Assembly (NCBI GenBank): GCA_001244265.2 | Contig: CDLV01000019.1 | Coordinates: 620,001 to 684,000, forward strand | DNA: 64,000 bases | Source: Microbotryum violaceum | Lineage: Eukaryota | Reading direction: 5' to 3' | Shown here: piece by piece, positions 1 to 59,293 of the stretch | Position numbering within the stretch: position 1 is the first letter of the stretch | How the letters are laid out: each line of letters starts with the position of its first letter | Notes under the pieces: generated by a model | Databases searched by the model: none | What the model was told of the DNA's origin: nothing | What the model saw: only the letters and a program-made list of their open reading frames with translations | Position numbers and translations under genes: made by a program

Positions 1-1828
1 GATCGGACGTTGAAAGTCAACACGGTGAGGGACTCAATCATGATTGAATCAGATCAGCGCCGCCCCCTTCGAATTCCGGCACCTCGGACCTGTAACCCCC
101 GGAACTGTTGCCCCTGAGTCGTCACCCCCTGATGCACCGTGGATCATGGCGGATCCCGCCCGGGTGACACGTCGGTTGCCGGGTGCCGAGCTCGAACGAA
201 GGCGTCGAGGACTCGTCGAGGCTATCGAGGTCGTCGAGGTTGCCGATGATTCCGACGTGCCACCGGACAAAGGCGATGCCGGAGCAGAAGTAGAAGGCGA
301 AGGAGAGGTCGGGGTCGAAACGGGCGCCGCTGTCGTCGTCTGCGTCTCCTTTGTTGGGCCCGTGGTCGCACGGGTCAACGTCTCTTTCCCAGTGTCGCCG
401 CCCTCCGGTTCGGTCGAAGCGACCGATTCGCCGTCGTCGTCGTCGTCGTCACTGTCGCCGTCGTTCGCATCGTCCTTGTTGCCGGTCGCTGCACCTGCGG
501 GGTTAGCACGAGGTCCCAGCTGGATCATGTTCGTGCCAGAGGCACGAGAGTTCAATGCGGCGGGCCCACCGTGCTTCCCATTCTTTCCAGCAACTCGGAA
601 GCCGGTGGTCGAAGTCGAAGTCGAAGTCGAGGCCCCCGGAACAGGGGCGGCGGTGGCCGGAGTCGAAACCGGCTTCCTGCAAGTCCCCCACTGGTGTCCA
701 GCGCGATCGCACACGGCGCAGTAGTGCGTCTCAAATTCGTGTCGCAAGCCGTACTTGGCGCCCAGGATCTCGATCTCTTGTGGCAAGGCGGCGTTGAGCG
801 CAGCCTTCTGCGTCTCGGTGGAGCCTTGGAAAAGATCAGCATGTAAGCGAAGGTACGCGCAGTGGAACCCGTCTTCGGTCATGGCCATCGGATCCCCATT
901 CGGATCGACCGCGAGGCCCCGCTGTAATTGCATCAGGGTATAGCCTTGCGTGCGACCTGCGCGGCCGAACGAAAGGGTGAGAGCATCATCGAGAGATTTT
1001 CGGAGCACGGAAGCGGGAATCGCGCTGGAAGAGGAGGGTAAGGTGAATCGCACCTGGACGATGTGGTTTAGGGGGAAACACTCGGGAGCTCGGTGACCAT
1101 CTCTTTTCCGTGATAGGGGAATGGACCCGCTGCAGCGGCTTCGAGACAGGCCTGGTCGGATTCGAACACGAGCTCGTACATATGACGAGCAATCGGGAAC
1201 CTCTTCGTTGCCTTCGTCACGATCGGGTTCAGCTTCACACATTTCGAGAAGAGCTTCTCGACCTCGGGGTCAAGCTCGGCGCCCTCGGGCCGCGCGAACA
1301 TGAATGGCGTCTCGGCCAGCCCAAAGTGCTCACGCAGCGCAATCTGTACAGGGCCTCTTGGGGACCCAGTACCATCCATGATGACTCGGATCACGTTGGA
1401 GGCCGGCATCGCGTCGTTTCGTACCGCCCTTTGAGCAGCTCGTGCGAGAGCCGGCGCCTGCGAAGGCGGGCTGGAAGGGTCATGCAACAGTACCATCAGC
1501 CGGCGGGTCGACTTGGAGGATGGTACGATGCCAAGGGCTTTGAAAGCCTTCTGCATCGACTTCTCATGGTCCAATCGAGCCTGAGAAGCCTGGGCAGACC
1601 AGGCTGGAGGATTAACGGTTCCTCCAGTGACCGTCTCACGGGTTTCCGTGTTGAGTGATTCATCTCTCAACACGTCACCAGCCCACGGGGCGTTGGGCGG
1701 GTGCGGGGGTGGGCCGGGCGGATCCGGCATCACTTCTTGTCGTCGTCCTGTAGCTCTTGAAGCGGTTGGTGGGCGACTGTACACACTACACGACGGTACA
1801 CACTTTGTGTGTGTGTGTGTGTGAATAG
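1..1828 (-). mobile_element. Non-LTR retrotransposon element A (5' part: 5' UTR, ORF1, start of ORF2); continues beyond window start
   Basis: ORF1 from ATG 1730 (MPDPPGPPPH..., frameshifted between track ORFs 1068..1859 and 49..1242) with zinc knuckle CAVCDRAGHQWGTC; ATG at 41 opens MIESLTVLTFNVR, an AP-endonuclease N-terminal motif like [11 protein letters not shown] and MIDFIIMTWNV of the neighbouring elements. Confidence 0.85.
38..1730 (-). pseudogene. LINE ORF1 (gag-like, CCHC zinc knuckle) of element A, frameshifted
   Basis: CX2CX4HX4C knuckle followed by a low-complexity acidic/Ser-Thr tail; an alternative frame ends DLIQS-stop overlapping the ORF2 ATG. Confidence 0.75.
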
Positions 1829-2485
1829 GATTTTTTTTTTTGTAGAAAACGTTCATCATATTGCCCCCAGTTCCTGTTCCCCCTGTTTTGGCCTACGGAA
1901 AAACTAGATGGAAGACTACGATGATAACACAAACCGCCCGCAAAAGTGCGAGAAACGAGCCAAGTCCACCAATCCGAGATTCGGATTCAAATGCCCTAGC
2001 CAAGCGGTTGCTCCCCCCAGGAGACTAATGAGAGAGAGAAAGAGAGATGAAGAGAAAAAAAAGAAAGAAAAGAAATGTACTAACGACAGAAGGCCCACCC
2101 CACAGCCACTTCCCACTCGGTCGAGACGAAGACAAGAGCACGACTGCGCAACCACCACGACCCTCGACGCTCCAAGTCTCTGCTCAGTCACAACAAGACG
2201 CGGTGAAGGTCCCTCAAAACCTCCCCATCGGCAGTCCCTGGCCCCTCAAAGCCGACTTTCTGCCTGTGTCCGCTGATCCCTCCCTTGACTCAGAACCCCG
2301 AAGCCGAAGAGCGCGAGCCACACCGAGTCGACGCCAAATCGCGAGATGGTCAATGATCCGCAACGATGAACCTGTAACAAATGAAAGACGAAAGCGATCT
2401 ATTTAGTGTACAGTAGGAGAAAATGATGTCACGAGAATTTGGTGTATGTGTGTGGTGGTGGTGGGGGGAAAGTCGAACCCAGCCT

Positions 2486-8796
<6,311 letters not shown>

Positions 8797-8877
8797 GGAT
8801 CTCTCTGTGTATCACTTGTTGGCGTAACCGAAGGTGTGGCGTGGGGCGATTTCGGCTTCGAAAGTGAAAGTGGGGGA

Positions 8878-10213
8878 TTTTTTTTTTTTGTATGAAACTC
8901 ATCGCTAATTTGCAAGACGAGAAACCCCCCTACGGAACTAAAGGTGATGTTGCCCAGTATGCACGTTGATGACCACAACCGCCGCTCGATGCGTTGTAAC
9001 TAGCAGAACAGACCAACCCGATACATCCGAGTTCAAGTCCCCCCACCCACGGTTGCTCCCTCCCAGAGACGAATGAAAGGAAGATTGAAGATAATACACG
9101 GGGAATCTGGAAACGATGGAAGAAATGTTGGTGGTGGTACATGTGTTGTACAGGTGAATCCGATCATAGTTGTACAGTTGAACCTTCTTCGATCTTTTGA
9201 CTTCAGACCCCCCTGAGACTGCCATACTCCTTGAGGCCCTTAATTCTTTGAGACGCGTCGAACAAGGCCTCCCATGGCACAAACATCCCGCTCAATCCGA
9301 ATGATTCACGTGGTCCAAAAGGGGGAATGTAACCCCCTGCGACCGCAGCAATCACATACCCCTTGTACCCGTCTGCGCTGGATCTCCACCGCGGAGTCCA
9401 ACCCCCTTTTCGGTTACCAAAGTCTGCCCCTCCTCGCGACCGCACGACCCCAGATCACCCCCATTTCAATGACTGCAACTGCGAAACAGGCCTACTTCGC
9501 ACAAAAACACACAATCCAGAGATTTCCGGGGAAAGTCATGGAGCATGTGACAGTCCATTGGACACGCCTCGGTCTGCAGCGCGGGCGGGTGGCCGTCAAC
9601 ACCGGCGCGCAGCTGGAGACAAGAGGCGGGGTATACCTTCCGCAGGGGCCTCGCTTCCCTGCGGCGTACTCCCAATCTCGGAACGCACACTCGAGTCCCG
9701 TTGTACGTGCAGGTGGTTCCCAATCACCGCAGATACTGGGGAAAGAAGGAGCATGAGGCCCACGACGGTGATGTCATTGGGTGGGACCTCGCTCGAGTGT
9801 GGATGTGTATGGCGGTTCGGTACCCGAGTCACCCGCCGCGCGGCCGCGACTCCGAGCGAGCAGCAAAGCAAGGAGAGGCGAGCCACGCAGGCAGTTTGTG
9901 CCGGCCTTGAACAGGAGATCACGGAGTCGCTCGACCGAAAGAGAAAACAGACCCGGCCCTTGAGAGGAGTGGAAAACTCACGGCGTAGTCCAGGAGAGGG
10001 CCGAGGGGATCCGCTTTCGCTGTGTGTCATCGTGATGTGGCAGAAGCTCGAACCAAGGGCGACGATGCTCGCCGGCGCAAAGAACCCGAGGCTCCTGGGG
10101 AGTACGGAAGCCTATGATGAGGAATGGCAAAAAGAGCGAGAGAAAACAGGTTCAGTATGCTGGCGTTTTTGGGAGACAGTGGAGAGATTGAGAAAGAGGG
10201 AAAGGGGACTTGT
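8878..10213 (-). mobile_element. 1.3-kb apparently non-coding polyadenylated unit D (long 3' UTR of element C, or a separate truncated/non-autonomous element)
   Basis: Bounded by GA(T)n junctions on both sides; 3' end shares TTCCGTAGG and GATGA..AC-poly(A) with the element B 3' end; no recognisable protein. Confidence 0.55.
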
Positions 10214-10222
10214 GATTTTTTT

Positions 10223-10225
<3 letters not shown>

Positions 10226-10270
<45 letters not shown>

Positions 10271-13200
10271 GTTTTGGTTTGGGTAGGGAGGGAGCGCCGT
10301 CTACTTCATCGTGCCAGTCTGAGCTCCAACCTCTCCTTCAGTCCGGCCATCTCCTTGTCCATGCTCGACATCGCTCTGGCGTGGCGATGGAGATCCCAGC
10401 GTCGGTTGCTGAGAGTGTCAAGCGCCAGCGCAATGAAGGCGCGGGTTGGGCGCTTTTTCGAAGCCGGAAGGCGAGCGCGCAGTCGAGGGAGGCCGTGCTC
10501 GATCTGAAGTGCCGTGTAGTCGAGGTCGAGGATCGACACGACCCCCAGCGCGTCGCAGAGAATGGACCTAGCTGCTTGCCAAAACTGAGAAGAGTCAGGG
10601 CAATCATGCCAAAAGTGAGTAAAGTCATCCTCCACCCCTGCCAGGCTGCATGCCTGCACAAGGCAGCAGGCTGAGTCGCCATGCCGCTGCACAAACTGGC
10701 GCTTCCGCGTTGGCGTGAAGTGGTACGCCAGCTTGAAGTGCACCTCGCGCTCGCGGGCCGTGGCGGGCCCGGTGTTGAACCACCCCAGAAGAGTCGCCTT
10801 TCTTTGGGTGTGGCGAGTGATCCAGGGCGTTGTGTGTCGTCGAAACGTCGATGGTTGATGACGCGTCGAAGTCGCGCAATGGTGTAAGGTCTGTCCAAGC
10901 TCAACATTCTCCACTGATCAGCACGCAAGGGGGCGGAGGGGAGGGAAAGTTTTTGATCAGGCATGCCGACCGGAGTCGCTCTGGGCAAGATATGCTCGAG
11001 GGGACCACCGGGCCGGACTCCAGGTGCTCCAACAACACGAATGACGGGTGGTCGACGTGCGAGGACGGGAACAGGAGGCGGAAGCGGCGGGATGAAGCGA
11101 TCGCCTGCGACCTGGATCCACGCCTGGACTTGATCGCGCTTCCATTGCCACAGGTTGGACAGCTCCGAGCCGTCGCCTTGGGGATGCTTCTCAGGGGTCC
11201 AGGGCACCGTTGGAGCTGCGGGGTATTGGGCTCGCGCATAGATGTCAGCGATGGTGCGTTCGAAACTGAAAAGCTTCGCCAAACGCTTATCCTGCTCCGA
11301 GAACACCCGCGAGTCATGCAGACCAGGTTGGAGGGGAGAAAGAGAGAGAAAATTGGAGACCGAAAGTTTGGCAGGATCGACGACGGCAGGGTAGCGTTCA
11401 GCGACCGAGAGCACCGCTCGCCAGCGGGGATGTAGCTCCCGGGGTGCGTCGGCGTTCCTCCACGTCCACAGATCCGTAGCAAAGTCAAAGGTTGGAAGCG
11501 CTCGCCGGATGGAACTCCGAGCCAGCTCGCCCCAAATCGCAGTTGACCCGCCGGCCAGCACGTCCCAAATCCGTACCGAGACTGAATCCACCACATCTTG
11601 GATGCTAACGACGCTGAGACCACCTCGCGCCCGTGTCGTGAAGACGACCGATTGCTTGTAGTCGCTGCGCCGCGGTCCTCCCTTCACAAAGTCGGCAAGC
11701 TTGCGCTCGATCGCCTTGATCACGTCGGATGGCGGTATGTCGGCGGAGAGAGAGTGCAACACCTTGGAGATGCCGTAGCGGTTGAGATAGAAAGCCCGGG
11801 TATGATGCGTCATCCATCGGTCGCGCACCGAGAGAATCACTCGATCAACCCTTTGCTCAAGATCATGGAATCCCAGCCTGTTGTTGCCGTCAGGCGCAAA
11901 CTGGAGACCGATCCAGGGAAGAGACTCGTCCGGTGCCACGAATGACAGTTTGGACAAGTCCGCGCGATCCCACAACGTCGCGCCCAATGGCATCACCACG
12001 GTTTTGTCGGTGTTTAGGCGTCCGTTCGTCGCGAGTCGCCAATCCCGAGCTAACGCCTCGAGCGAAGCAATAGCGTCCGGTCCAGCGACAGCGACGACGG
12101 CGTCATCCGCGAACGCCAAATTGGTGATGCATCGAGTCTGCGGACGAGGAGCCAGCTCTGGAAGGGTGATAGTCAGCGCAATGTTGCGTCGACTGAGAGA
12201 ATCAAGGAAGGGTTGGAATACCACATCCCAGATAGAAGAAGAGAGAGGATCGCCCTGGCCAAGACCGCACAGGAGTCGCACCGTCTCGGTAAGGAAACCG
12301 TTGACAATGTACCGCGCTGTGGACGTCTCGCCGTTGTAGAGCATCCGCAAGACGCGCTGGAAAGATTCCGGCGCGCCGAGAGCCTCAAACACCGCAAAGA
12401 CCCAGTCGTGCTCGACCCTGTCGTAAGCCGAGCTCTGATCCAGGGAGAGGAGCGCTGCTGTCGGGAACTCTGCCCCACGACCCCTAATCTCATCGATCAG
12501 GAGCCTCAGATGCAAAGCCGCGTCCGCTGGTCTTCGCCCTTGACGAACCCATGCTGTCCGGCCGGAAGAACATCGGGGAGGATCCGGTTCAGACGAGCCA
12601 CGTAGACCTTGGTGAAGATCTTGTAGTCGCATTCCCGCAAGGTGATCGGACGATACGATTTGAGGTCGCACCGCGCTGCACCAGGTTTGTTGTGTTTGAA
12701 CAAGAGGCGCACATTGGCCTGGCTCTGTTGTGGAGTAAGGGAGCCTCGAGTAATCAGCTCGTTGTAGGCTCGAGTCAAGAGAGGGGCCCAAAGCAGGGGG
12801 CAGGCTCGATACATCTCATAGGGGACCCCTGAAGGACCCGGAGATCGACCTTCGTGCGTGGTTCGAATCGCTGCGAGCACCTCGGCCTCGCTGATGGGCT
12901 CGGCCAGAATGTCGACGTGCGAATTCGAGAACCGCCGAAGGAAGCGAGCGTCGGAAAGCGGGTCGTCACAAGGTCTTGCTGATCTGATGGGTCCCAAGAG
13001 CTCATCCCGCATCGTCACGACCTGTTCCGGATCCTTCGCTTCGACAAGGTAGTGCTGCTGGAAATGAGAATGGGTGTGTTCGAGCGCGCGCTCAATGTCA
13101 GTGGTGAGCTCGCCATCAGCGAGCCGGATACTCTGAAACTTCACATCGCGGGACCGAGCAGCCAGTTTGGCATGTACCGGACGACTGAGACGTTCCTCGG

Positions 13201-14903
13201 ATGCAATCTCGGGAACGTGCGCCCTGATCCGGGACTGCCTTGCTCGCTCGTTCACAAGCTTGGAGAGAGCGTCGTGGGTGTTCGTCCAGTCGATAATATC
13301 GAAGGGGCTCAGCACCCGACGAGACTCAATGTCCTGCAGTCGAGATACCAGCATCATCTCGAGGGCGTTGCGCTCCCGAAACAGACGCCGAGACAGCTCG
13401 AGAGCTTGGACCCGAGACTCCGAGAGTACGCGCTGAAGGTCCGCGACCGGATCCCCAGACGGCTCCTGCTCAAGGAGAGGAGTGACGAACTCCTTAAACT
13501 CGGCGTGTTTGAAGGTCGACGAGTTGATGCGGGTCAGAAAATGCGCCGCCTGGGGAAGGCAGAGCTCCTCTTCGACCTCGGCACCACTTGCGCGCAGCCT
13601 AAATGTGACCATAACCGGTCGATGATCCGACATGGGTCGAGAGATATTGTACAGAGTAGAAGCAGAAACGATCCGTCGCTCGTGTCGCCGCTGCACCAGA
13701 ACAAAGTCGATGCGCGCGCGCGAAATGAGCTGGCCATCCTTGCTGAGATGCGGGCGCGTGGTCGCCGGCGACAGTGGGTGCATGAGCCGAATGGCATCCG
13801 TGTACGCCCCGTCAAGCCGAAACATAAGCACAGGCCAGTGGTGGGTGTTCGGGCGGTCCACCTGTTGCGCTCGATCCACCGCGGGAATAGGGCAGTCGTT
13901 CAGATCGCCCGCGATGAACCGAATGTGAGAGGAGACGGTCGCCCGAAAGCGAAGGGAGGTGAAGAAGAGGAGGCGCTCGGCGGGTTGAACCGGAGCGTAG
14001 ATATTGTTGAGTTCGACGACGTCCGTCGAACCCCGCACATCGAAGGTGGTCACGAGTAAGCGCCCGCCAAGAGACTGACGCGTGCGACGATGACCACCGA
14101 GAAGAGGAGAAGAGCTTGGAATCAAAGTGAGGCAGTGTTGAGAAAAGTAGGCCTCGCCCTGGTGGGACTGGGCGTACTCGTGGCGTATGTGAGGTTGCCG
14201 TGCTTTAGGAACATTATGTTCCTGGAGAAGGATAGCAGAAGGGGGAGGTGTGAGCGAAGTGATATACGAAAGAAGCCGACGACGTCGTTCAGGGGTATTG
14301 AAGCCCCTGTTGACGTTCCAGGTCATGATGATGAAGTCAATCATTACGATTGCGCCTTCGTTGCAGCAGCAGCTCCCTTGATGGACAACATAGGTCCGAA
14401 TGTGGGTGAGGGGAGCGGGTCCGCAGCAGTCGATTCGTTCCAGTCCGATGTGCGCGCAACGCTGGTGAGACGCTGGATACGCTCGGACCGGCGAAGACCC
14501 TGGGAACTTCCTTTGTCCACCTCCTGCTTGGGCTCGGGCTCGGGATCAAACACTGGACCTGGAGACGGCGAAGGCATCCAACCGGTTACAGACGGGGTGC
14601 GGTCCAACTCGGTGATCTCATCGTACAGACCAGCATCCTGTTTGCGCTCGCGGTCCGACACACGATTCATCCAGTCGTCGGGAAGGCCGTCCATATCAAG
14701 CTGATGGTGACTGGCCGATCGGGACCGCGTCAGCTCAGGGGTCGTCGAAACAACCACAGGCACAGTGCCCGTCTCGGCCGACTGCGATTCCCCTTCTTCC
14801 GCGTCACTCGTCTCCGTGTGTTCCTCCTGGCTCCCCTCCGCTCCGCGGTCCTGCAGATCCGACAGATCCGAAGGCTCCAACGGCGGCACCTCCTGCTGTT
14901 GTT
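10226..14903 (-). mobile_element. 5'-truncated L1/Tx1-type non-LTR retrotransposon, element C (family distinct from B)
   Basis: ORF1 C-terminus (14344..~14900), ORF2 alignable by eye to B but diverged, 43-nt A tract after the stop. Confidence 0.92.
10306..14344 (-). pseudogene. LINE ORF2 of element C (APE-RT-zinc finger), about 2 frameshifts
   Basis: [52 protein letters not shown]...HFWHDC. Track ORFs 12506..14344, 10338..12791, 10306..10914. Confidence 0.92.
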
Positions 14904-14904
14904 G

Positions 14905-14912
14905 TTTTTTTT

Positions 14913-14952
<40 letters not shown>

Positions 14953-15997
14953 TAGAAAACGTTCATCATATTGCCCCCAGTTCCTGTTCCCCTGTTTTGG
15001 CCTACGGAAAAACTAGATGGAAGACTACGATGATAACACAAACCGCCCGCAAAAGTGCGAGAAACGAGCCAAGTCCACCAATCCGAGATTCGGATTCAAA
15101 TGCCCTAGCCAAGCGGTTGCTCCCCCCAGGAGACTAATGAGAGAGAGAAAGAGAGATGAAGAGAAAAAAAAGAAAGAAAAGAAATGTACTAACGACAGAA
15201 GGCCCACCCCACAGCCACTTCCCACTCGGTCGAGACGAAGACAAGAGCACGACTGCGCAACCACCACGACCCTCGACGCTCCAAGTCTCTGCTCAGTCAC
15301 AACAAGACGCGGTGAAGGTCCCTCAAAACCTCCCCCATCGGCAGTCCCTGGCCCCTCAAAGCCGACTTTCTGCCTGTGTCCGCTGATCCCTCCCTTGACT
15401 CAGAACCCCGAAGCCGAAGAGCGCGAGCCACACCGAGTCGACGCCAAATCGCGAGATGGTCAATGATCCGCAACGATGAACCTGTAACAAATGAAAGACG
15501 AAAGCGATCTATTTAGTGTACAGTAGGAGAAAATGATGTCACGAGAATTTGGTGTGTGTGTGTGTGTAGTGGTGGTGGGGGGAAAGTCGAACCCAGCCTC
15601 TACTGCCCTCTCCTCCCCCAAGCTCCTCCCGCCCTCAGCTTCAACCTCTCCTCCAAGATGATCCTCCTCCTCCCAACACCCTCCATCCTCGTCCCCCACT
15701 TTTGCATCCCCACCTCCGCTGCTGATCATCTCCAAGACCAGCCCGGTGAATATTTCGATCGTCCTCCCCGCTCCTTCTTGATCGCGTAGACTGGCCTTGA
15801 GCTTCGGAAGTCCGAACATGCGTTGAACAGCCGTGTAATGCGTGTTGTCGATCGTGTCGAGCCCCAGTGCGTCGCAGAGCACGCTCCTTGCCGCTATCCA
15901 AACGTTCCCAGAGTCAACGCAGTCGAAAAAGTAGTGGTCGGTGTCGTCCATCGGCGCTTCGCAGACGAGGCACGCGGGAGAAGTGTCGTGATTCTAA
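14905..15997 (-). mobile_element. 5'-truncated second copy (B') of the element B 3' end, ~1.05 kb plus poly(A)
   Basis: 14952-15930 is near-identical to 1842-2820 and diverges in the zinc-finger codons (DDTDHYFFDC vs DDREHYFFDC). Confidence 0.95.
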
Positions 15998-16140
15998 GAT
16001 TTTTTTTTTTTTTGTATGATTGTTTTTTTTTTGTATGATTTTTTTTTATATGATTTTTTTTTGTATGATTTTTTTTTTGTAGAAAACGTTCATCATATTG
16101 TGTATGATTTTTTTTTTGGTATGATTTTTTTTTTTTGTAT
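15998..16140. repeat. Seven imperfect GAT(T)nGTAT units, one containing a 22-nt element B 3' terminus
   Basis: Read directly; 16079-16100 GTAGAAAACGTTCATCATATTG equals 1842-1863 and 14952-14973. Confidence 0.9.
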
Positions 16141-16207
16141 GTATTTACTACTAAAACAGAAGAGGCTGGGTAGGACAGTCTACATTTGTGTTACATTAAT
16201 GAAAATG

Positions 16208-16330
16208 GGGCGGATGGTCGAGTGGTCTAAGACGCCAGATTCAAGGATTACGAGTTTATTGTAACTGCATTGCGTCGCAATGATATTCCTGGTCTCGAAA
16301 GAGGCGTGGGTTCGAGTCCCACTCCGCTCA
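16208..16330 (+). tRNA. tRNA-Leu(CAA) with ~41-nt intron (about 16246-16286)
   Basis: Acceptor GGGCGGA/TCCGCTC-A, A box TGGTCGAGTGG, anticodon loop TTCAAG, long variable arm GTCTC-GAAA-GAGGC, T arm GTGGGTTCGAGTCCCAC, T5 terminator just downstream. Confidence 0.9.
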
Positions 16331-16385
16331 ATATCTTTTTCAACCTTGATCGTCATTTTTGCAGCACATAACTGGCCAGCCAGGC

Positions 16386-16429
16386 CCTGAGTTTTGAAAA
16401 AGGCGCGGGTTCGAGTCCCACTCTGATCA
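16386..16429 (+). pseudogene. Degenerate tRNA-Leu-like 3' half / extra B box
   Basis: CCTGAGTTTTGAAAAAGGCGCGGGTTCGAGTCCCACTCTGATCA mirrors the variable arm, T arm and acceptor of the upstream tRNA; no 5' half seen. Confidence 0.65.
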
Positions 16430-17972
16430 AAACTTTTAAACGACGTCACAAGTCCCTCGATGCTTTTATCTTGTTTATCCGTTTTAATCACAGCCAGGCA
16501 GGCCCAGAGATGGCAAAGGTATGGCGCGTTCGCGCCGGGCCCCTTTTAAGTTGTTGATTGCGCAGCCGCCGGATCGACGTTCGTCGTGCGAGTTCCCCGC
16601 GACCCGCCTGCCGGTTGAACCGCCGCGTATTTCTTTACTTTGTCTAAGATTTGGCTTGTGATGGAAGAGAGCACATGTACGGCTCGCTGCTACAATTCGT
16701 CATCTCGCACGACGTGCCGCGGGTCTGGTCTCGCCGATGGGGACCCGCAAATTTGGGACGGCCCTTATCGCGCAGAATTGGTAAATCCGGGGCCCCTGGG
16801 GGATATATGGTCGTAATCAAAGTAAAATATATGACATATTACCGGTCCACGCAGCACTCCCTGGTGTTTGTGTAAAGAGACCGCAGCCATGACAATGATG
16901 GCCGCTATCGTATGATCCCTACGCGTTCCAGATCAGGAAGTTTTGGGATTCGTGTAAAAATCTTCCCCCAAGGTAGTCGCTGGGGAATCTTGATTGTGCC
17001 ATCCCCCCTCCGAGTGGTACTTCGTGGTGAAGCAGGGCGTAGCTAGAGGGCGGGTTGTGACGGAGCGCGTGTTCCTGTTTACTAGATCTGTTCCTACAGG
17101 ACGATTTGGGAGTCATCCGGTGCATACAACGCCACAACTGACCATCATCGCGGGACAAAGCGCGTGTTTCTCTCGAGTCAGACCACAGCTTTCAATTCTC
17201 CGATTAATATTTTTTGCGTCGGCGGTCGAGGTCTCTCTTCGCGCTCGTTTCCGTCTCGGCGTCGGCGGATTTTTCCCACAAGCACTCCCGCATCCCCCTC
17301 GCCCGGGTTATCGCTCGAGCGCCCCCATTTCGCCCCCCCCCCCCCCTCACTTCCTCTCTGTGAGCTCTGCGAGCATTTGTACTTTACCATGCCCCCCACT
17401 AGTTGTGCGACTCCAAGCGTCCGGGGTGGAAAGCGCTCGGCGGCTAAAAGCTCCGCCTGAGGCAACCAAGCAAACGCCCGCTGATCTCAATACATCACAA
17501 GTCTTGCAGAGTGAGACGAACGTCACCGTTGTAGACGGTAGGCACGCCAAGACACGCCAGAGAGAGCCGAATGACCCTACAGCAAGAAAAAGAACCCTTA
17601 CAGTGGCACGACCCCTCCTTGCCCAGCCCAGCGCCCTTAATCGCCTCGTGCGCGACTCTGTCTCGTGGACGAGATCTTTGACCCCGTACCCACGTCGGGG
17701 GGCGGGGGGGGGGGAGAGGAAAAAAAAGAAAAAAAAAAAAAAGAAAAAGAAAAGGAAGAGGGAAAGAAAAAAAAGGAAAAGGGGAAAGGAGAAGAGGGAG
17801 GGGAAGAGAAAGAAGGAGAAGAAGAAGAGGGAGGAGGGGGAAACAGGAGGAAGAGAGGAAGTGGTACGGAACAAGTCATTTTGACAATATACATCATATT
17901 ACAGGTGTTATGAAGCCACAAAGTTGTAACATTTCTTTTGATGCCGAGCTCGGCCATTCATCTCAGCCCTTG

Positions 17973-19945
17973 TCAGTCCTCTACAGAACCTTGTGATTGT
18001 GGGTCGTTCGGATCCATCTCCGAGTCGTCTGTCAGCCCGAAAGGCTTTCCGCAGTCCAAGCACGCCCCTTCACACCCAGTCACCGATCCGTCATCGCTTA
18101 GTTTTGACCCCTTGAGTCGACAAGTAGTTTGACCACAGAATCGACAGTGCCTTGCCCCTTTTGTGGTACCCGCGCGCGTCAAAGCGCTGCTCGTGCCCAA
18201 GTCCGCGCTCGAACCAGCGTCGCTCGAGGCAGTTGCAACAAAGGGGCGGATGGATGACGTTGGCGGATCTGAGGCATCGATTTCTATATCCGTAAGCCTC
18301 CCCAAGACTGGCGGTTTGTGACCAAGTAATGGCTTAGCCGCTAGCATGCTAACATCACGACCACGGGAGGGGTCGGTAAGCAAAGCTTGAATCACTTTGA
18401 CGTCGTTCCCACCCATGTTCATTGTGGCTTGAGCATTTGCCAGCGACGACCATCTCGATGCCCATGTATTAATGTGCTCTTGCGACATACTTTGTAAAAG
18501 ATGTCTACTCCGTTGGCATACTTGTTCCAAAGCTCGGGAATCTCCAATATCCGAAGATTTTGAGGAGCTCCCAGTCGTATCTTGCTTGGGAGATATCTGT
18601 ATAGCGCTCGTTCGCTGGGTGTATGGACATGTAATACAGCGAATCGAGTACCCTGACGTTCCGCTAGCCAGTCGTGGCGAAGCTTGCGATCGGTTAGCAG
18701 CCGGCTTTGCATATGCTGTATCGCCGACGTATTGTTTTGCAGCAAGTTCCGTGGCGACCACTTGACGGGCTCCAAACGCAGAGTCCCGCGCTCGACGTGA
18801 TAGGGCTCGATCAAAAAGCGCATTTGCGCTGTTGGCGACTGAACAGGTACGATGCCGAATGTTTCGGTGGATCGGGTGTAGAGCAGCGGGTTGACTATAT
18901 CTGACACATGGTTGAGTGCCGTGGGAGAAATGCCGAGGTCTTGCGCCTTAGACGATGTAATTCCACAGTGAGCCAGAGGTTGTAGTGCCCCACAAATGGT
19001 TTTCCGGTACGATTGAACGTCCCAACCTGCAAATACAAGGGATAGTGGGTGAGAAAGGTTGCCGCTTCTTCGAATCGCGATGGTGAAGTTGGACTGACCG
19101 TGAGATTGTGCACTAGCACGTAGTCAGCCAAGCACGCATTGGCATGGCACGGAGAAACACCCGACTTTGGAAACCGCTGGCGGAGGTTCCGGTGGATGCC
19201 TCCTTCGAGACTGTTGGTGCCGCACTGGCAGGAATATAAACGGACACCGTCATCCGCCTTTCCATCTGGCCCTCCGCAAGGCCCAAGGTCGGTGTACAGC
19301 TCGATGCCAACTGGATCCGAGACTTGGCCTTTCCGAATCGCCTCAAGACATCTCTTCGCTGCCTCGTGCGCCGCTTTGTTGAAAAGTGGTTGCTTCGACT
19401 TCGCATCGATCAATGGTCCGAACTTCTCAAAGACCTCCCGGACCAAAGGCTCGAGAATGCTTGGCGGAGGGATTCATCGACGAACGCGTCTCCAAAGCTT
19501 CTTATTCCATACCGGCGAACGGAGGGCTTCTTCCCACGTCATTCCGAGTTTTGCTAGGCGAGCCTCCATCAGGAGTCGATCATCCGCATTCGGGATGAAA
19601 ATCGCATCGGAGAACGCGCGAGCAAAGGCTTTGGCAGCGCCATGTTTTTTGGACACATAGATCCGGTCAAAGAAATGCCAGAGATCGATTAGAATCCGCA
19701 CAGCGGTCTCGTCTGAGGAAGGGACTAGTGAAAGGGGATAGTTCGATATACGTACATCAGCTCCAGCCCCGGCGCCAGGACTGGGGCAAGTCCGTAGTAA
19801 CTGACCTTTGCTTGTTGCAGCCTTGCCCCAGATAGCTTTGCCAGCTGCTTCATTCTGTCGTCCGTGTTATCGGCGCTTCGTTTCCGAAAGAAGCGTGATA
19901 GCAGTTGCATCGTAAGATATGGCACGTTGCAGCATGAAGACAAGG
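17973..19945 (-). pseudogene. Decayed DDE transposase fragment, Dada-like
   Basis: IDLWHFFDR (DxxH), AFSDAIF, IPPP, DAKSKQPLF, SDPVGIELY, GTNSLEGGIH, WN..ANG..IFYK and a C-terminal Cys cluster; in-frame stop at ~19474 and frameshifts. Family assignment from recalled motifs only. Confidence 0.6.
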
Positions 19946-19970
19946 GATGGCCGCGTGCGGCGCGCCTGAT

Positions 19971-20866
19971 TGCGCCAACTCAAGTGCGCCAACTCAAGTG
20001 CGCCAACTCAAGTGCGCCAACTCAAGTGCGCCAACTCAAGTGCGCCAACTCAAGTGCGCCAACTCAAGTGCGCCAACTCAAGTGCGCCAACTCAAGTGCG
20101 CCAACTCAAGTGCGCCAACTCAACTCGGTGCGCCAACTCACGCGCGCGCGGTGCGCTAACTCAAGTGCGCTAACTCAAAGGCTTTGCGCAAGGTTCGCCG
20201 GGTTCACTCGGACGCCGAGGATACCGGCCACCTTCTCTCCCTGGGGTCCCTCCATCCGGGAAGCCAAGTCGCCTCCCCAACCAGCCCACATCCCAACAAT
20301 CGATCTACCTTCTGTGTGATGTGCCTCTCGGAAGCACCCGAGTGCCTGGTTCACCTCGCGGTCGGCTGCCCATTTGCCCGGCGCCTCTGGTCTGCTCTGT
20401 CCCCGACCCCCACCCAGTCTTTGTGAACTTTGTATGCCCGGTCGTGTCTCGCTCGGAACGTCGACTTGTCGAACTATGGGTCCTCTTCTTTCACTCGATC
20501 TTCTGGAAGCTCTGTCGCGGTCGTCGATTCTCGTCGGATCTTTTGGAACCGATCATCGAAACGGAGTTCGAGGGGCTTCGAGCCTCTATCCAGGAGTCCA
20601 AGGGTCGCCTAGTGTCTCTGTAAGACACCAAAGGGGGTTTTAGTGGGTATGGTTGATCCTGGTTCAGGGTCAATGAGTCCTACACTACTGGCTTCTGCCA
20701 GTGTGCGTAACAGCATTCCCTCCGACTTTTCCGAAGATTTCTAGGTATTAATATAATTATGCTGTTAATGAAGTCTATCAAATAAAAAACAAAAAAACTC
20801 AAGTGCGCCAACTCGGGCGCCCGACTGCGCCAACTCAAGTGCGCTATCTCAATTGCGCCAACTCAA
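19971..20866. repeat. 14-bp tandem repeat (TGCGCCAACTCAAG), ~10 perfect units then degenerate units, split by an insertion
   Basis: Perfect array 19971-~20120; degenerate units to 20178 and again 20796-20866. Confidence 0.95.
20179..20797 (+). mobile_element. 5'-truncated LINE 3' end (another family) inserted in the 14-bp repeat
   Basis: Zinc finger CVMCLSEAPECLVHLAVGCPFARRLW, 3' UTR, A-rich tail; AACTCAA on both flanks as candidate target-site duplication. Confidence 0.8.
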
Positions 20867-23800
20867 TTTGGCGCGCGCGAATTAGCGCAAGCGCACCCCC
20901 AGCACCGGTACCGCCCCAGATCTGTCTTCGGACCGATCCTGACACGACCCGCTGGCTCCTCGGCGCTCGTCGGTGCGGCTCGCCCCGGGGCCTCGACTGC
21001 GCGTGCGTCGACGGGTCCGTTGTAAACCATCTTGGTTGCCTATCCAGTACGCCAAAAGTGGAGGCACTGTTATACCCGGTAATTAGCCACGGCTGTACGC
21101 GCGTCTGGCCCGAGGCACAACAGGAAGTATGTCGTATGAGTGATGCAGGCGGAAGCTAGGCGCGCGGGTGCTTAGGCTGGAGTGTGGGCGCACAGCTGAG
21201 GGTTGGCTGAGGCCAGGTGGATGGCTGGATTAGGAAGGAGTTTCGCTTAGCGAAAGAGGCTTTTCTTAGTTGCATCTTGGGGCTACTCTCTTGTTCTTTT
21301 CCTCATCACTTGATCTTACAACTTCCTGGTCCTGACTTTGGCGTGTTATCACAACGCATCTCTGCGCCGCTTAGGAGCGCGAGACTATCAGATTCACAAC
21401 AAAGTAGACTCTACCTTATCCTTTGATTCGTTTTTTCTTTGGAATACCAGTGGAACCGTGGTACCCGGGATCCCGTCGGAGGCATTTCCGACATAGCGGG
21501 CCCCGTCAGGAGTCATTCCGGTTGTAGCGGGGTCGCGTTATTTTAGCGGGGTCTGTGGTACTTGGAATTCCGTCGGAAGCAGCGGTTGTAGCGGAGTTGT
21601 TTCGGTCGAAGCAGGATCGAGTTCCGAAGTCGTGTCGGTCGAAGCAGGGTCGAGTTCCGAAGTGGTTTCGAGGGCGGAGTCGGGAGTCGTTTCAATTTCC
21701 ACTAGTCCGAGCAGGGATCTGCCAAACGCCGGTTTTGGCAGATTTCTCAGTGGTTAAGCGGTCCCGGATAAACTCAGTACTTCGGTGACTCGGACTTGAC
21801 TGGCAGCGACGAATCATGTGGCGGGATTTGAGTGGAAGACCGGGCCGGATGCGCGGACGAAGGGATGAAGGGGAATGAAAGGAGCGCAGCGGTTTGAATG
21901 GTCGGAACGTTTGAGGGGAGTTTGCTTCTTGTTCTTAGCTAGACCACTTCTAGGATCCAATACAGCATCCTAGCTGGTTCTCACTTTCTGCGTGTGTCAG
22001 GTCTCGTCTCTCGTCTCCAGTCTCCAGTCTCAGCGTTTTGTTCTCGTACTCGGTCTCGATTCTCGGTTTGGGCCCCTTTCTCGTCTCTCGGCCGTTCCGG
22101 TAGCTCTCTCCTTTCTCGTCCCTCGTCTTCGGTCTCGGTTCCATCGTTTCCCCTTATCTTTCCATATCATCATTGATGGAGCGCTTTGCTATACCATAGA
22201 ACCTGTTAAATTAACAGGAGGATGAAGTTCAAATAGCGGTATAATTGAAGAGTACATATGGTTACAGCAGGACGGAAACAGGGAATTTGAGGGGGACACC
22301 CTTGTGCAACCCTATGCTCAAAATTCTGGTTCTGCCTGGACGTCCCGATCGACCAGCGAAAAACGTTTCGAGGTCAGCTGCGAGCGCCGAACTGGGCGTC
22401 GAGGGAGCGGATGGACCTCACCGATCGATCGCCTCTTGGACGTGCGGGATGCGCGCTCACGTTGTTCCGCCGTCGTAGGGGCACGAACAGCGGTAAAGCT
22501 TTTGTTTGTGAGCATCGCGTTGGCGACAAGAGGCCGCTGTCGCCGCAGCCGGTCGGCGAGACCCGATGCGACGGAACGTCGCTCGCACTCCATGCGTAGC
22601 CGGACCGCCGAAGCCTCGTCCAGGTTGCTCCCCCTCTCACTCTGAGAATACGCGAGCGCCCCGGGGGGTCGTCTACAACGAGCCGCCGATCGATCATGAC
22701 TGTCAGCGCATCGCTCGGCCTGGGGGGGCAGGCGGGGGCCAAGGACGCACCGGATTGAGGTGGGCACGGTTGCAGGTGGACGCGATGCGGGCGGGCTCAG
22801 CTGGCGTAGAACGTGGTGGAGGTCGGGGTGCTCGAAGGGGTGTGTGAGCGCAAGAGCGAACGTCGGCGCAAACGAGCTCAAAGCTGCCGGCGCGTACGCT
22901 CGGACCAGCTCGGGCCCCCGCGAGTCGGCTCCTGACGTCACGTCTACTTTGGCCAATTGTCGCCGACGCTCCGAGGAGTATGGGGGGCGGCTGTGCTTCT
23001 CCAGAAGATCGTGGGTCCTGCCATGGGAGTTCGCAGTGGTCGCTGGAAAATACGAAACGGACCGAGCAGGTGTCAGCTCCCCTTTGCGAACGACCGGACG
23101 TACGCTTGCCAAGATTGCCTACATCTGACCGCATGGAAGGACAGCAATTGATGCTAAGCTAGCTGTGCAATCGGAGCGGTAGCCCCCTTGGTGATGGTGC
23201 AAGCAGTGTACGTGGAGTCAGGGTATGTGTGCTACACTGATCAGCTTCGATCCTCCTCGAGCGGCGAGGGGACGGTGCTCACCAGGATAATGATCTGCAT
23301 GGAGGACTGAGGGGAGCACTAGGGCCTAAAAGTCAGTGCCGAGCTCGCCAGGGCGGGGACTCGGCTGTGGGGTGTCGCACAGTGACTCACCAGCGCGGCG
23401 CGTTGGAACGACGAAATGCGGTCAGACGATCAGACGACGTGGTCGATAGCGAATCTCACAGGTTACCCAGAGAGAGGTTGGCTGGGGGTGTATATGTGGG
23501 GCCAATACAAAAGACAGAGAGAAGGGGAGAGGTGATGCGACCGCGCGCTCGAGACCTCCCCGAGCCGGCGCGAGCGACGGCCCACCGCCGCTCTCAGGAG
23601 ACAGTAGTGCTCGGACCTCCTGGCCGACGTCGGGCGAGCTAGTAGCAGGTATATGCCGGGACTCGGCTCCCCTACCGCAAACGTTGACGACAGTATGAAG
23701 CGTGAGTGGAACCTTTATTTACTGTGCGACTATGAATGGCTGTGTGAGAATTCACGGTGGAGATTGCCCACCCGGCCACTAGGCGCTCCACCAGGAAGTC

Positions 23801-25989: not shown

Positions 25990-26700
25990 AGGGCTTCGGG
26001 CGTCAGGGTGATTGCGCGCAGTCGTTGTCCTGTCTTTGTCTCGACCGAGTGGGAGTTGGGAAGTGGATGCGGAATGGGCCTCATGTCGTTGGTACATTCT
26101 TTGCTCTTCGGGTTCTGTTTTTTTTTTTTTCTTTCCCTCTCATTCGTCTTCTGGGGTGAGCAACCGCTTGGCTGGGGCATTTCAATCCCAAGTGTGGAAG
26201 GGGTCGACGCCATCCTGTTGCTCGCAACTTGTGGGCCGCTATCACGAAATAGAAGGCGTGAGCCGAACGAAGGGGCTCGAGACGAGGGGTGAGGGACGAG
26301 CCGAAAGATCTTCTAAGGGCTTCTCAACAGGGACGATGGCGTGACCCTTGACGAGATTCGAGTTGCAGGAACGGAACGGAAAAGAGAGGGTAATAGTACG
26401 GAGTTGAGCTTGAGTGTCGAGAGCACAGCGTAGGAGACGAAAAGAGGAAGAGGCATAGCGTGACGCGAGAAGGGCGGTGCGGGTTGCATGGGAAAGCTGC
26501 TCGGGGCCGAGTAATGCCCAGCAGTGCTTTCATCGTCAAATTCCACGAGGAATTGAGGACAATATGATGAGCAGTCTCCACGACCAACAAAAAATGACCG
26601 GGCGGGACAAATCAGGATATTCACGGAGAGGGTCTTGACAATGATCAGCAGTGGGATTTGGAGGATACAGGAGGACGGGGCGAGTATGATAAGCTTGGAG
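25990..26700 (+). mobile_element. Old degenerate relatives of the element B family (3' UTR, 3' end with A tail, then another ORF2 C-terminal fragment)
   Basis: GTCTCGACCGAGTGGGA and GAGCAACCGCTTGGCT shared with the B 3' UTR; CAATATGATGA..AAAAAA end at ~26560-26594; IRIFTERVLTMISSGIW resembles IEIFTGLVLEMISSGRW. Confidence 0.75.
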
Positions 26701-37079: not shown

Positions 37080-37117
<38 letters not shown>

Positions 37118-42984: not shown

Positions 42985-43016
<32 letters not shown>

Positions 43017-58300: not shown

Positions 58301-59293
58301 GCTCCCCTGATCTTACACAGTAGTTGAGACCTGACGCTTGAGGATACAATCACCTCGTCGTCGCAGATTTTCAGTCAAGGCGAGCGAGATAGGCGGCGAA
58401 AGCGACAGCCTCTTGTTTTGAGCCGATATTTTGGTATGCATGACGACGTGTGTGTGGTGGAATTAACGGTGGAAATTTTAATTCCTGAGAGTACTTTTCC
58501 GTCCCACGGCTTTTCCGTGAGGCTGGTGAATTAATCCGATGGAAAATCACGAAGGCATGCTTTGCGCAGCGATATTCGACTTTTTTTCACGCGTGTCGGC
58601 CCCGAAAAACGCCTCAGGATTTCATTCTTGGATGGAAGTTCGACACTCTCGACTTTGGGGTTAGTACCCGTGCCCGTGCCGGGGGGGAGGGGGGGCTGGG
58701 AGGAAAAAGATGAAAAAGAAAAAGAAAAAGAAAAAGAAGGAAAGAAGGAAAGGAAGAAAAAAGAGAGAAGAAGGAAAGAAAGAAAAAATGAAAGGAAAGA
58801 AACAAGAACGGAAAGAAGGAAAGACGAACACACGATGTAGGTCATAGTACTTTCTTGTTGCATAACTTGCAAACCTAAGTCGGTATCTGGCGGTGTAGCC
58901 AGTACACCTATACCAGGTACACGTAGATATGGAATGCCTAAGCTTCAGAAACAGGCCGGCGGTCTTGCTCGCAGCGGCCTCACTTCAAAGCCTTTTCACG
59001 GCTCGGACGGCAGTGTTGAGAGCAATGAAGAAAGCAGGCTTTGAGAATGTGGATTGCAAGAAGTACTATTTGCATCGCAAGAAATGCTTTCCACAGAATT
59101 TATGCGAACATTCTCACCGTGATTGGAGCCAATGGCTAGAATAAGGCACCGTTCAGTCCGCGCCGCGCCTGCCGGGGAGAGGATACTAGGAATTGCCGTC
59201 TTCCTCGGCGAGTGCCGCAAAATTGTAGTCGTCAAAATACTTTTCCATCCCATGTTGCGTGTATGCAGTGGTTCGAGGCGAGTGCTCGGTGAC

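Follow-up and report, generated by a model that had tools for sequence, protein, structure and literature searches.

The DNA analysed here (the window) is a 64,000-nucleotide stretch of contig CDLV01000019.1 of Microbotryum violaceum (assembly GCA_001244265.2, positions 620,001 to 684,000 of the forward strand), in which a short T-rich array lies between a stack of LINE sequences and a tRNA-Leu gene (Table 1). The DNA to the left of the array is made up entirely of minus-strand retroelement sequence, with poly(A) tails that read as T-runs on the plus strand. The full-length-size family B copy, the family C element and the truncated family B copy B' all have their 5' ends toward the plus-strand tRNA gene and their tails away from it. 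The tRNA gene scores 43.2 bits with Rfam, against a gathering score of 29, and intron-aware ARAGORN calls it as the sole tRNA gene of the window (with the default bacterial settings, no tRNA gene is called). The flank separating it from the array is covered by contigs of two public runs, X1 and X7. The remaining genes of the window are ordinary eukaryotic ones, including a Nipped-B/cohesin loader, an M16 peptidase and a citrate-lyase-type aldolase.

Table 1. Coordinates of the array, the neighbouring retroelements and the tRNA gene within the window.
Feature	Position	Strand	Remarks
Left GGA+T11 copy	1828-1841		right copy 8875-8888
Full-length-size family B LINE	1842-8874	-	ORF2 APE + RT; coding region split over frames
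Region D	8896-10213		1.3 kb, unique in window
Tail of C	10214-10269	-	plus strand GA T8 GA T44
LINE family C	10270-14904	-	APE + RT
Tail of B'	14905-14951	-	plus strand T9 C T37
B', 5'-truncated family B copy, ~1 kb	14952-15990	-	abuts first T-run of array
Seven-unit array	15998-16140		in element sense (minus strand) ATAC-A(n)-TC
Unit 1	15998-16017	+	GA T14 GTAT
Unit 2	16018-16036	+	GA TTG T10 GTAT
Unit 3	16037-16051	+	GA T9 ATAT
Unit 4	16052-16066	+	GA T9 GTAT
Left 17-nt TSD copy	16062-16078		TGTATGA+T10; its T10 doubles as tail
Unit 5	16067-16105	+	GA T10 + 22 nt + T GTAT
Right 17-nt TSD copy	16101-16117		
Unit 6	16106-16122	+	GA T10 G GTAT
Unit 7	16123-16140	+	GA T12 GTAT
Flank	16141-16207	+	67 nt, array to tRNA gene; starts GTATTTACT
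tRNA-Leu(CAA) gene, 46-nt intron	16208-16330	+	Rfam; ARAGORN with introns

Some other features of the region deserve mention in their own right. About 60 nt past the tRNA-Leu gene there is a tRNA 3'-half-like piece (16391-16437, with 16340-16432), 81% identical to 16292-16338 and made up of a variable arm, a T-arm with the B-box-like GGTTCGAGTCC and an acceptor end, followed by TTTT; no tRNA is called there by Rfam at E up to 10, and the piece looks like a decayed tRNA copy. A 14-nt minisatellite, TGCGCCAACTCAAG, occupies 19971-20178 with 10.9 perfect copies and degenerate copies nearby, and recurs 0.7 kb further on (20798-20895). Purine-rich low-complexity tracts of the GA/AAAG type are present on the plus strand at 17720-17843 and 58703-58824.

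In family B, the ORF at 3682-6564 matches the Pfam families Exo_endo_phos (2.5e-06) and RVT_1 (3.2e-19), and the same two families are matched in family C (8.5e-07 and 7.9e-13, respectively); in both families, ORF2 thus carries an RT and, N-terminally, an APE endonuclease. The five best of ten PDB matches of the family B ORF2 are to human L1 ORF2p (E 2.6e-21 to 2.3e-20), the remaining five being to R2-type proteins (E 1e-13 to 8e-11). A zf-RVT match reaches 26.3 bits, just below the cut-off of 27.5, and the nearest ESM-Atlas clusters consist of eukaryotic APE+RT proteins, Basidiomycota being the commonest phylum in the first. Judged from these matches, the family B ORF2 is an L1-like protein with APE and RT. 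LINEs of the APE-type, L1-like kind are marked by a 3' poly(A) tail, by variable 5' truncation and by target duplications (TSDs) of about 7-20 nt. At this locus, poly(A) tails appear as T-runs at 1831-1841, 10226-10269 and 14915-14951, 5' truncation has left pieces of 1 kb (B') and of 22 nt (a micro-insertion in the array), and duplications of 14 and 17 nt are found. The coding region of the full-length-size copy (2486-8811, minus strand) is broken into ORFs at 7231-8811, 6516-7463, 3682-6564, 2802-3908 and 2486-3262, and either this copy is not intact or the assembly carries indel errors.

B' is 97.2% identical to B (1842-2881) over 1045 nt, and family C shares 67% identity with B over 1272 nt. 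In run X1 the k-mer depth over B' is about 2,600-22,000 as against 69 for the flank, and these depths, which are not copy numbers, suggest that B' belongs to a multi-copy family. The homology of B' to B ends near 15990, leaving ATTCTAA (15991-15997) as unexplained junction filler; the junction sequence ATTCTAAGA (15991-15999) occurs in the window at 15991 only. The 7-mer TCTAAGA of this filler recurs in the D-loop region of the tRNA (16226; 16224-16232) and at 16643, and a link between filler and tRNA was judged to be probably chance in view of the third occurrence. Two ORFs of region D matched no Pfam family with E values of up to 1. The idea that D contains a tRNA relic acting as a second target was dropped, since Rfam, with E values of up to 10 allowed, returned five weak matches, none of them a tRNA; D is counted as matching no other RNA either. 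Its minus strand ends in ...TCATAC followed by A12, and it may therefore be a retro-inserted sequence; it is flanked by GA+T12 and GA+T8. A further, degenerate fragment at 25993-26688 shows about 75% identity with the 3' kb of family B and lies in the opposite orientation; no tRNA gene accompanies it, that at 16208-16330 being the only one of the window. Outside the assembly, a metagenome scan with the exact pattern of the family B 3' end plus A5 gave 0 loci, and one with the B ORF2 protein as query gave 117 pattern stretches, no relative being found among them by tblastn.

The array itself was resolved by direct reading and parsing of the plus strand into seven head-to-tail GA-T(n)-GTAT units with a unit length of 15-20 nt, and TRF assigns to these tandem units a period of 15. 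Three of them are irregular, with TTG in unit 2, ATAT in unit 3 and GGTAT in unit 6. The bases responsible (G at 16022, A at 16048 and G at 16118) each stand between perfect repeats of 14-18 nt. To take these one-nucleotide spacers as proof of non-templated filler was considered and dropped, since T-run arrays give such repeats around any substitution; on the sequence, the three bases are either junction filler or point mutations. No variant is common to two of the seven units, and the T-runs of neighbouring units are mostly of unequal length. Units 1-5 are known from the window assembly alone.

The arrangement goes far past what chance would give. With up to two mismatches, the 18-mer T6-GTATGA-T6 has six matches, all within 16008-16130, where 0.01 is expected, and a count of six was reached in none of 100 shuffles. 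The regular expression GA-T>=6-(G/A)(G)TAT, which misses the interrupted units 2 and 5, finds six matches on the plus strand (five array units and 8876) and none on the minus strand. The match at 8876 corresponds to an eighth unit-like motif, GA T12 GTATGA (8876-8895, listed on the minus strand), at the junction of the full-length-size B copy with region D. The seven T-rich units described in the first-pass annotation are thereby borne out, with the reservation that three are irregular, and its GTATGA at 8890 is correct, the T-run there being of 12. The GTAT it placed at 16137 as native flank does exist, as the last GTAT (16137-16140), but it forms part of unit 7, and the flank proper starts at 16141. 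The GTAT(GA) motif could derive from the native flank, which starts with GTAT, or from the 3' end of region D.

Between 1831 and 16136, GA directly precedes nine of the twelve T-runs of at least 9 nt, as compared with none of four elsewhere in the window. Most simply, the GA+T(n) pieces are then copies of one target that was repeatedly duplicated, and those at the junctions of B, D, C, B' and the array would represent one landing pad used many times. Two long intergenic T-runs, T34 (37082-37115) and T30 (42987-43016), have no GA before them, no GTAT or GTAG after them and no LINE attached; these two LINE-free runs are too few to count against T-tract targeting.

Unit 5 is the only unit that holds element sequence. 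Its 22 nt (16079-16100, minus strand) match the 3' terminus of family B (1842-1863 and 14952-14973) at 100% identity, in agreement with the earlier claim that exactly the terminal 22 nt are present, and they meet the T-run at the same boundary as the family B copies. On either side of the piece stands one copy of a perfect 17-nt direct repeat, TGTATGATTTTTTTTTT (TGTATGA+T10), a flanking duplication recognised here for the first time, which is a TSD of L1 size. The combination of an element 3' end, a T-run and a flanking target duplication is what target-primed reverse transcription (TPRT) classically leaves behind. Since the exact end of B, the T-run and the perfect duplication coincide here, unit 5 is a genuine, extremely 5'-truncated TPRT insertion.

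The full-length-size B copy presents an analogous situation, lying between 14-nt repeats of GGA+T11, the right one of which is followed by T and GTATGA; it thus went into a T12-GTATGA edge, duplicating 14 nt. The inferred nick for the 22-nt insert falls after T10 and before G, and that for the full-length-size copy inside the T12 at 8878-8889. These two inferred places differ; common to both is their position at a T-run's 3' edge. The lengths of the two duplications (14-17 nt) are close to that of the array unit (15-20 nt), so that wherever a hit falls on such an edge, approximately one unit is added.

Taking these observations together, the array is best interpreted as a small minisatellite of LINE poly(A)-tail copies and TSDs, built on a T-tract landing pad upstream of the tRNA-Leu gene, a reading to which we give a probability of roughly 0.65. 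It is proposed that elements of families B and C, through their APE endonuclease and RT, would place a nick in the plus strand where a T-run has its 3' edge or close by, and that the T-rich 3' end would prime on the poly(A) of the element RNA. The second strand would be cut 14-17 nt away, giving rise to the duplication, and each hit would add one unit plus whatever cDNA had been made. In the case of unit 5, cDNA synthesis would have halted after 22 nt, with the second cut 17 nt away, whereas a cDNA aborted inside the tail would leave one more bare GA-T(n)-GTAT unit. The six cargo-less units may have originated in this way, from TPRT aborted before any copying of the element, or by ordinary slippage of such units. 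The pad may be self-reinforcing, as every hit would create another T-run/GTAT edge.

The 22 nt of B inside 17-nt duplications, the full-length-size B inside 14-nt ones and the abutment of B' on the first T-run of the array support the landing pad. Other features fit it poorly: element sequence is limited to unit 5, six of the seven units carrying no mark of reverse transcription; the junctions of B' show no clear duplication (T9 on the left as against ATTCTAA GA T14 on the right); and the tail of C, GA T8 GA T44, falls outside the simple scheme. A cargo-less hit is identical in sequence to a tandem duplication by slippage, and the two origins are therefore inseparable for the six units.

It had been claimed in the first-pass annotation that each unit is a truncated TPRT event and that all the hits fell at one nucleotide position. 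The first part stands for unit 5, with its 22 nt of B and its 17-nt TSD, but not for the six cargo-less units, which in form cannot be told from tandem duplications; the second is not supported, given the different places of the inferred nicks for the 22-nt insert and the full-length-size B. That the array is made of LINE-tail and target-duplication material, beside minus-strand L1-like LINEs, holds good. It would accordingly be a record of repeated use of a T-tract pad rather than a chronological log at one nucleotide.

Strain comparison bears on how the array changes. The region 15700-17700 is present in 20 of the 22 listed public runs, which come from seven studies, with genomes of about 23 Mb. 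Four of these runs (X1, X7, X11 and X20) were compared over 14300-17300; none of their contigs crosses the whole array, and only one, from X1, enters it. This contig (1259 nt, depth 69) covers 16113-17300 and differs from the window by two other letters and by a 15-nt insertion, T10GTATG behind 16127, that is, one unit length more at the tRNA-proximal end; as the contig reaches this end of the array only, the position of the difference is an effect of what was visible. The contig of X7 ends at 16145, that of X11 fits from 16161 only, its preceding 54 letters being unlike the window, and X20 offers one low-complexity piece of 33 nt (16104-16136) set between flanks unlike the window, all three being uninformative on the array. 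A joint in X11 (15048>16213) was disregarded because it has only 22 letters on one side.

The 15-nt insertion of X1 contains no element-derived bases, and reverse transcription is thus not needed to account for it. The last two T-runs of X1 measure about 13 and 8-9, with no clean TSD-type duplication of the T12 of the window, and the difference is most simply read as a single 15-nt gain or loss by slippage. The array is dynamic in unit steps. Strain variation fitting simple slippage, with no element-derived termini, had been named in advance as evidence against a log of insertions, and the extra 15 nt of X1 go halfway toward it.

The alternative that comes closest, possible although we regard it as unlikely, is that one LINE tail with its TSD seeded a 15-nt repeat whose later growth came from nothing but replication slippage or unequal exchange, with unit 5 as a single later retrotransposition. 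The head-to-tail units, the TRF period of 15 and the unit-length polymorphism of X1 without element bases are all as expected under such a plain minisatellite. The three irregular bases could likewise be single substitutions, amounting to about 2% over 143 nt, to be compared with the 2.8% divergence between B and B'. Nevertheless, the sole datable event in the array is a TPRT hit that duplicated exactly one unit, in which foreign element sequence lies within its own TSD, and three further LINE insertions (B', C and the full-length-size B) sit on similar GA+T(n) edges. Slippage alone also has to contend with the unequal T-runs of most neighbours and with the lack of any variant common to two of the seven units, which argues against very recent slippage among them and would be expected of old units too.

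It is improbable, in our judgement, that the array comprises seven separate truncated TPRT events at one nucleotide set by the tRNA gene, in the manner of TRE5, forming a chronological log with the newest unit beside the tRNA. Such a log draws on the true micro-insertion of unit 5, on the additional unit of X1 at the tRNA-proximal end, and on the fact that the LINE 5' ends face the tRNA gene's 5' end, with the array ending 67 nt upstream of it, the orientation given for TRE5-A in the available part of PMC3159450. Against it, the cargo-less units bear no mark of reverse transcription, the proximal position in X1 is biased by the reach of the contig, and the nicks for the 22-nt insert and the full-length-size B are not at one nucleotide. 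In addition, the full-length-size B lies in a T-run that is now 7.3 kb from the tRNA, and the B-related sequence at 25993-26688 has no tRNA nearby in a window with one such gene. An origin in one step, from a D-type complex 3' tail (...TCATAC-A12) truncated within the tail or from RT stutter during one integration, would explain why GTATGA follows a T-run at the D boundary (8890-8895) as well as in the units, but it is very improbable given that D, itself unique in the window, has one unit only, and that the 17-nt duplication at the 22-nt insert and the X1 polymorphism indicate stepwise change.

With the T-tract landing pad as the preferred reading, the part played by the tRNA gene has to be considered separately. 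At this single locus B', C and B share a fixed orientation, with the 5' end turned toward the tRNA gene's 5' end, and the stack ends 67-72 nt upstream of it. Within the window, however, copies also lie away from Pol III genes, unlike what characterises TRE5-type elements: the full-length-size B was inserted at a point (8875-8889) that lies 7.3 kb away from the window's one tRNA gene. This copy could have been adjacent to the tRNA when it inserted and have been pushed away later, being degenerate enough to be old. Overall, the evidence from the window favours the edges of T-runs over a single nucleotide fixed by the tRNA, and the array by itself is not evidence for tRNA-directed targeting. It is doubtful that B and C are guided to about 60-70 nt upstream of tRNA genes, as a convergent, TRE5-like form of Pol III targeting with the cargo-less scars as a record of hits. 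In Table 1 of a 2018 review, as far as its accessible content goes, the tRNA-targeting non-LTR elements come from dictyostelids only (PMC5911963), and the listings of a literature search contained no paper tying fungal or Microbotryum LINEs to tRNA genes.

Among known systems, Zorro3, an L1-like LINE of Candida albicans, offers the closest behaviour. According to the available sections of PMC1965478, it inserts into short poly-A tracts, with a tract at both ends, through a proposed priming in which a nicked poly-T flap anneals to the poly(A) of the RNA, and 5'-truncated copies occur. The elements described here are similarly APE-type and L1-like, with insertions in A/T tracts, 5' truncation and the same priming proposed. 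A tract is found at both ends of the 22-nt insert (TGTATGA+T10), of the full-length-size B (GGA+T11) and of B' (T9 and T14), as in Zorro3. Zorro3 itself begins with poly-A, whereas B at its 5' end, next to 8874, reads CCCCACTTTC in the sense direction and is not A-rich; moreover, those sections of PMC1965478 describe neither an array of tail/TSD units nor adjacency to tRNA genes, in contrast to this locus.

The layout, on the other hand, recalls the TRE5 elements of social amoebae. TRE5-A (DRE) of Dictyostelium discoideum is placed about 44-54 bp upstream of tRNA genes, with its 5' end facing them, in the portions at hand of PMC3159450, PMC5911963 and PMC5006619. Like TRE5-A and NLTR-B of Polysphondylium pallidum, the present elements are non-LTR retrotransposons whose ORF2 has APE, RT and a zinc finger (here a putative one), located upstream of a tRNA gene in the opposite orientation and frequently 5'-truncated, as the same partial sources report for the amoebal elements (PMC3159450, PMC5911963, PMC5006619). 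The preference of TRE5 has nonetheless been established genome-wide and experimentally, whereas here there is one locus at 67-72 nt, together with a B copy 7.3 kb away. On the analysis presented, the elements may thus be said to resemble Zorro3 in behaviour and the Dictyostelium TRE5 elements in layout.

For the extreme truncation of unit 5, a parallel exists in the human 'short pseudogenes', L1-mediated retrocopies of up to 300 bp that carry poly-A and TSDs, derive from mRNA and are dispersed, as stated in the part of PMC2831318 available. In these, as in unit 5, 3'-terminal sequence with poly-A and TSDs marks extremely truncated TPRT products; the difference is that here the 22 nt belong to the LINE itself and lie inside a tandem array, not to dispersed copies of mRNAs (PMC2831318). 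Tandem arrays of transposable elements formed when one site receives two insertions (bioRxiv 10.1101/158386) and microsatellites born from poly(A) (PMC3812793) have also been described, both works being available in part. This locus agrees with both in that repeated insertion at one site, or LINE tails, seed tandem repeats, although in those cases the units are whole elements or repeats of one to a few nucleotides, whereas here they consist of a tail and a TSD, and the size of the unit corresponds to that of the TSD.

The locus would therefore represent a modest variant of known poly-A-tract targeting, extreme 5' truncation and tail-born repeats, in which a single mechanism links the first with the last. 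In the 22-nt insert and its 17-nt duplication there is a clean natural illustration of the extent that 5' truncation can reach, and a LINE landing pad can become a minisatellite when the length of the duplication matches that of the repeat. If the cargo-less hits are real, censuses of elements under-count the activity of LINE endonucleases at such pads. A larger question raised by this locus is whether the present LINEs of a fungus have an attraction to tRNA genes like that of TRE5 in slime moulds; if guidance by tRNA genes were true, scar arrays of tail and TSD would provide a readable hit frequency for each tRNA gene, including those hits that left no element behind.
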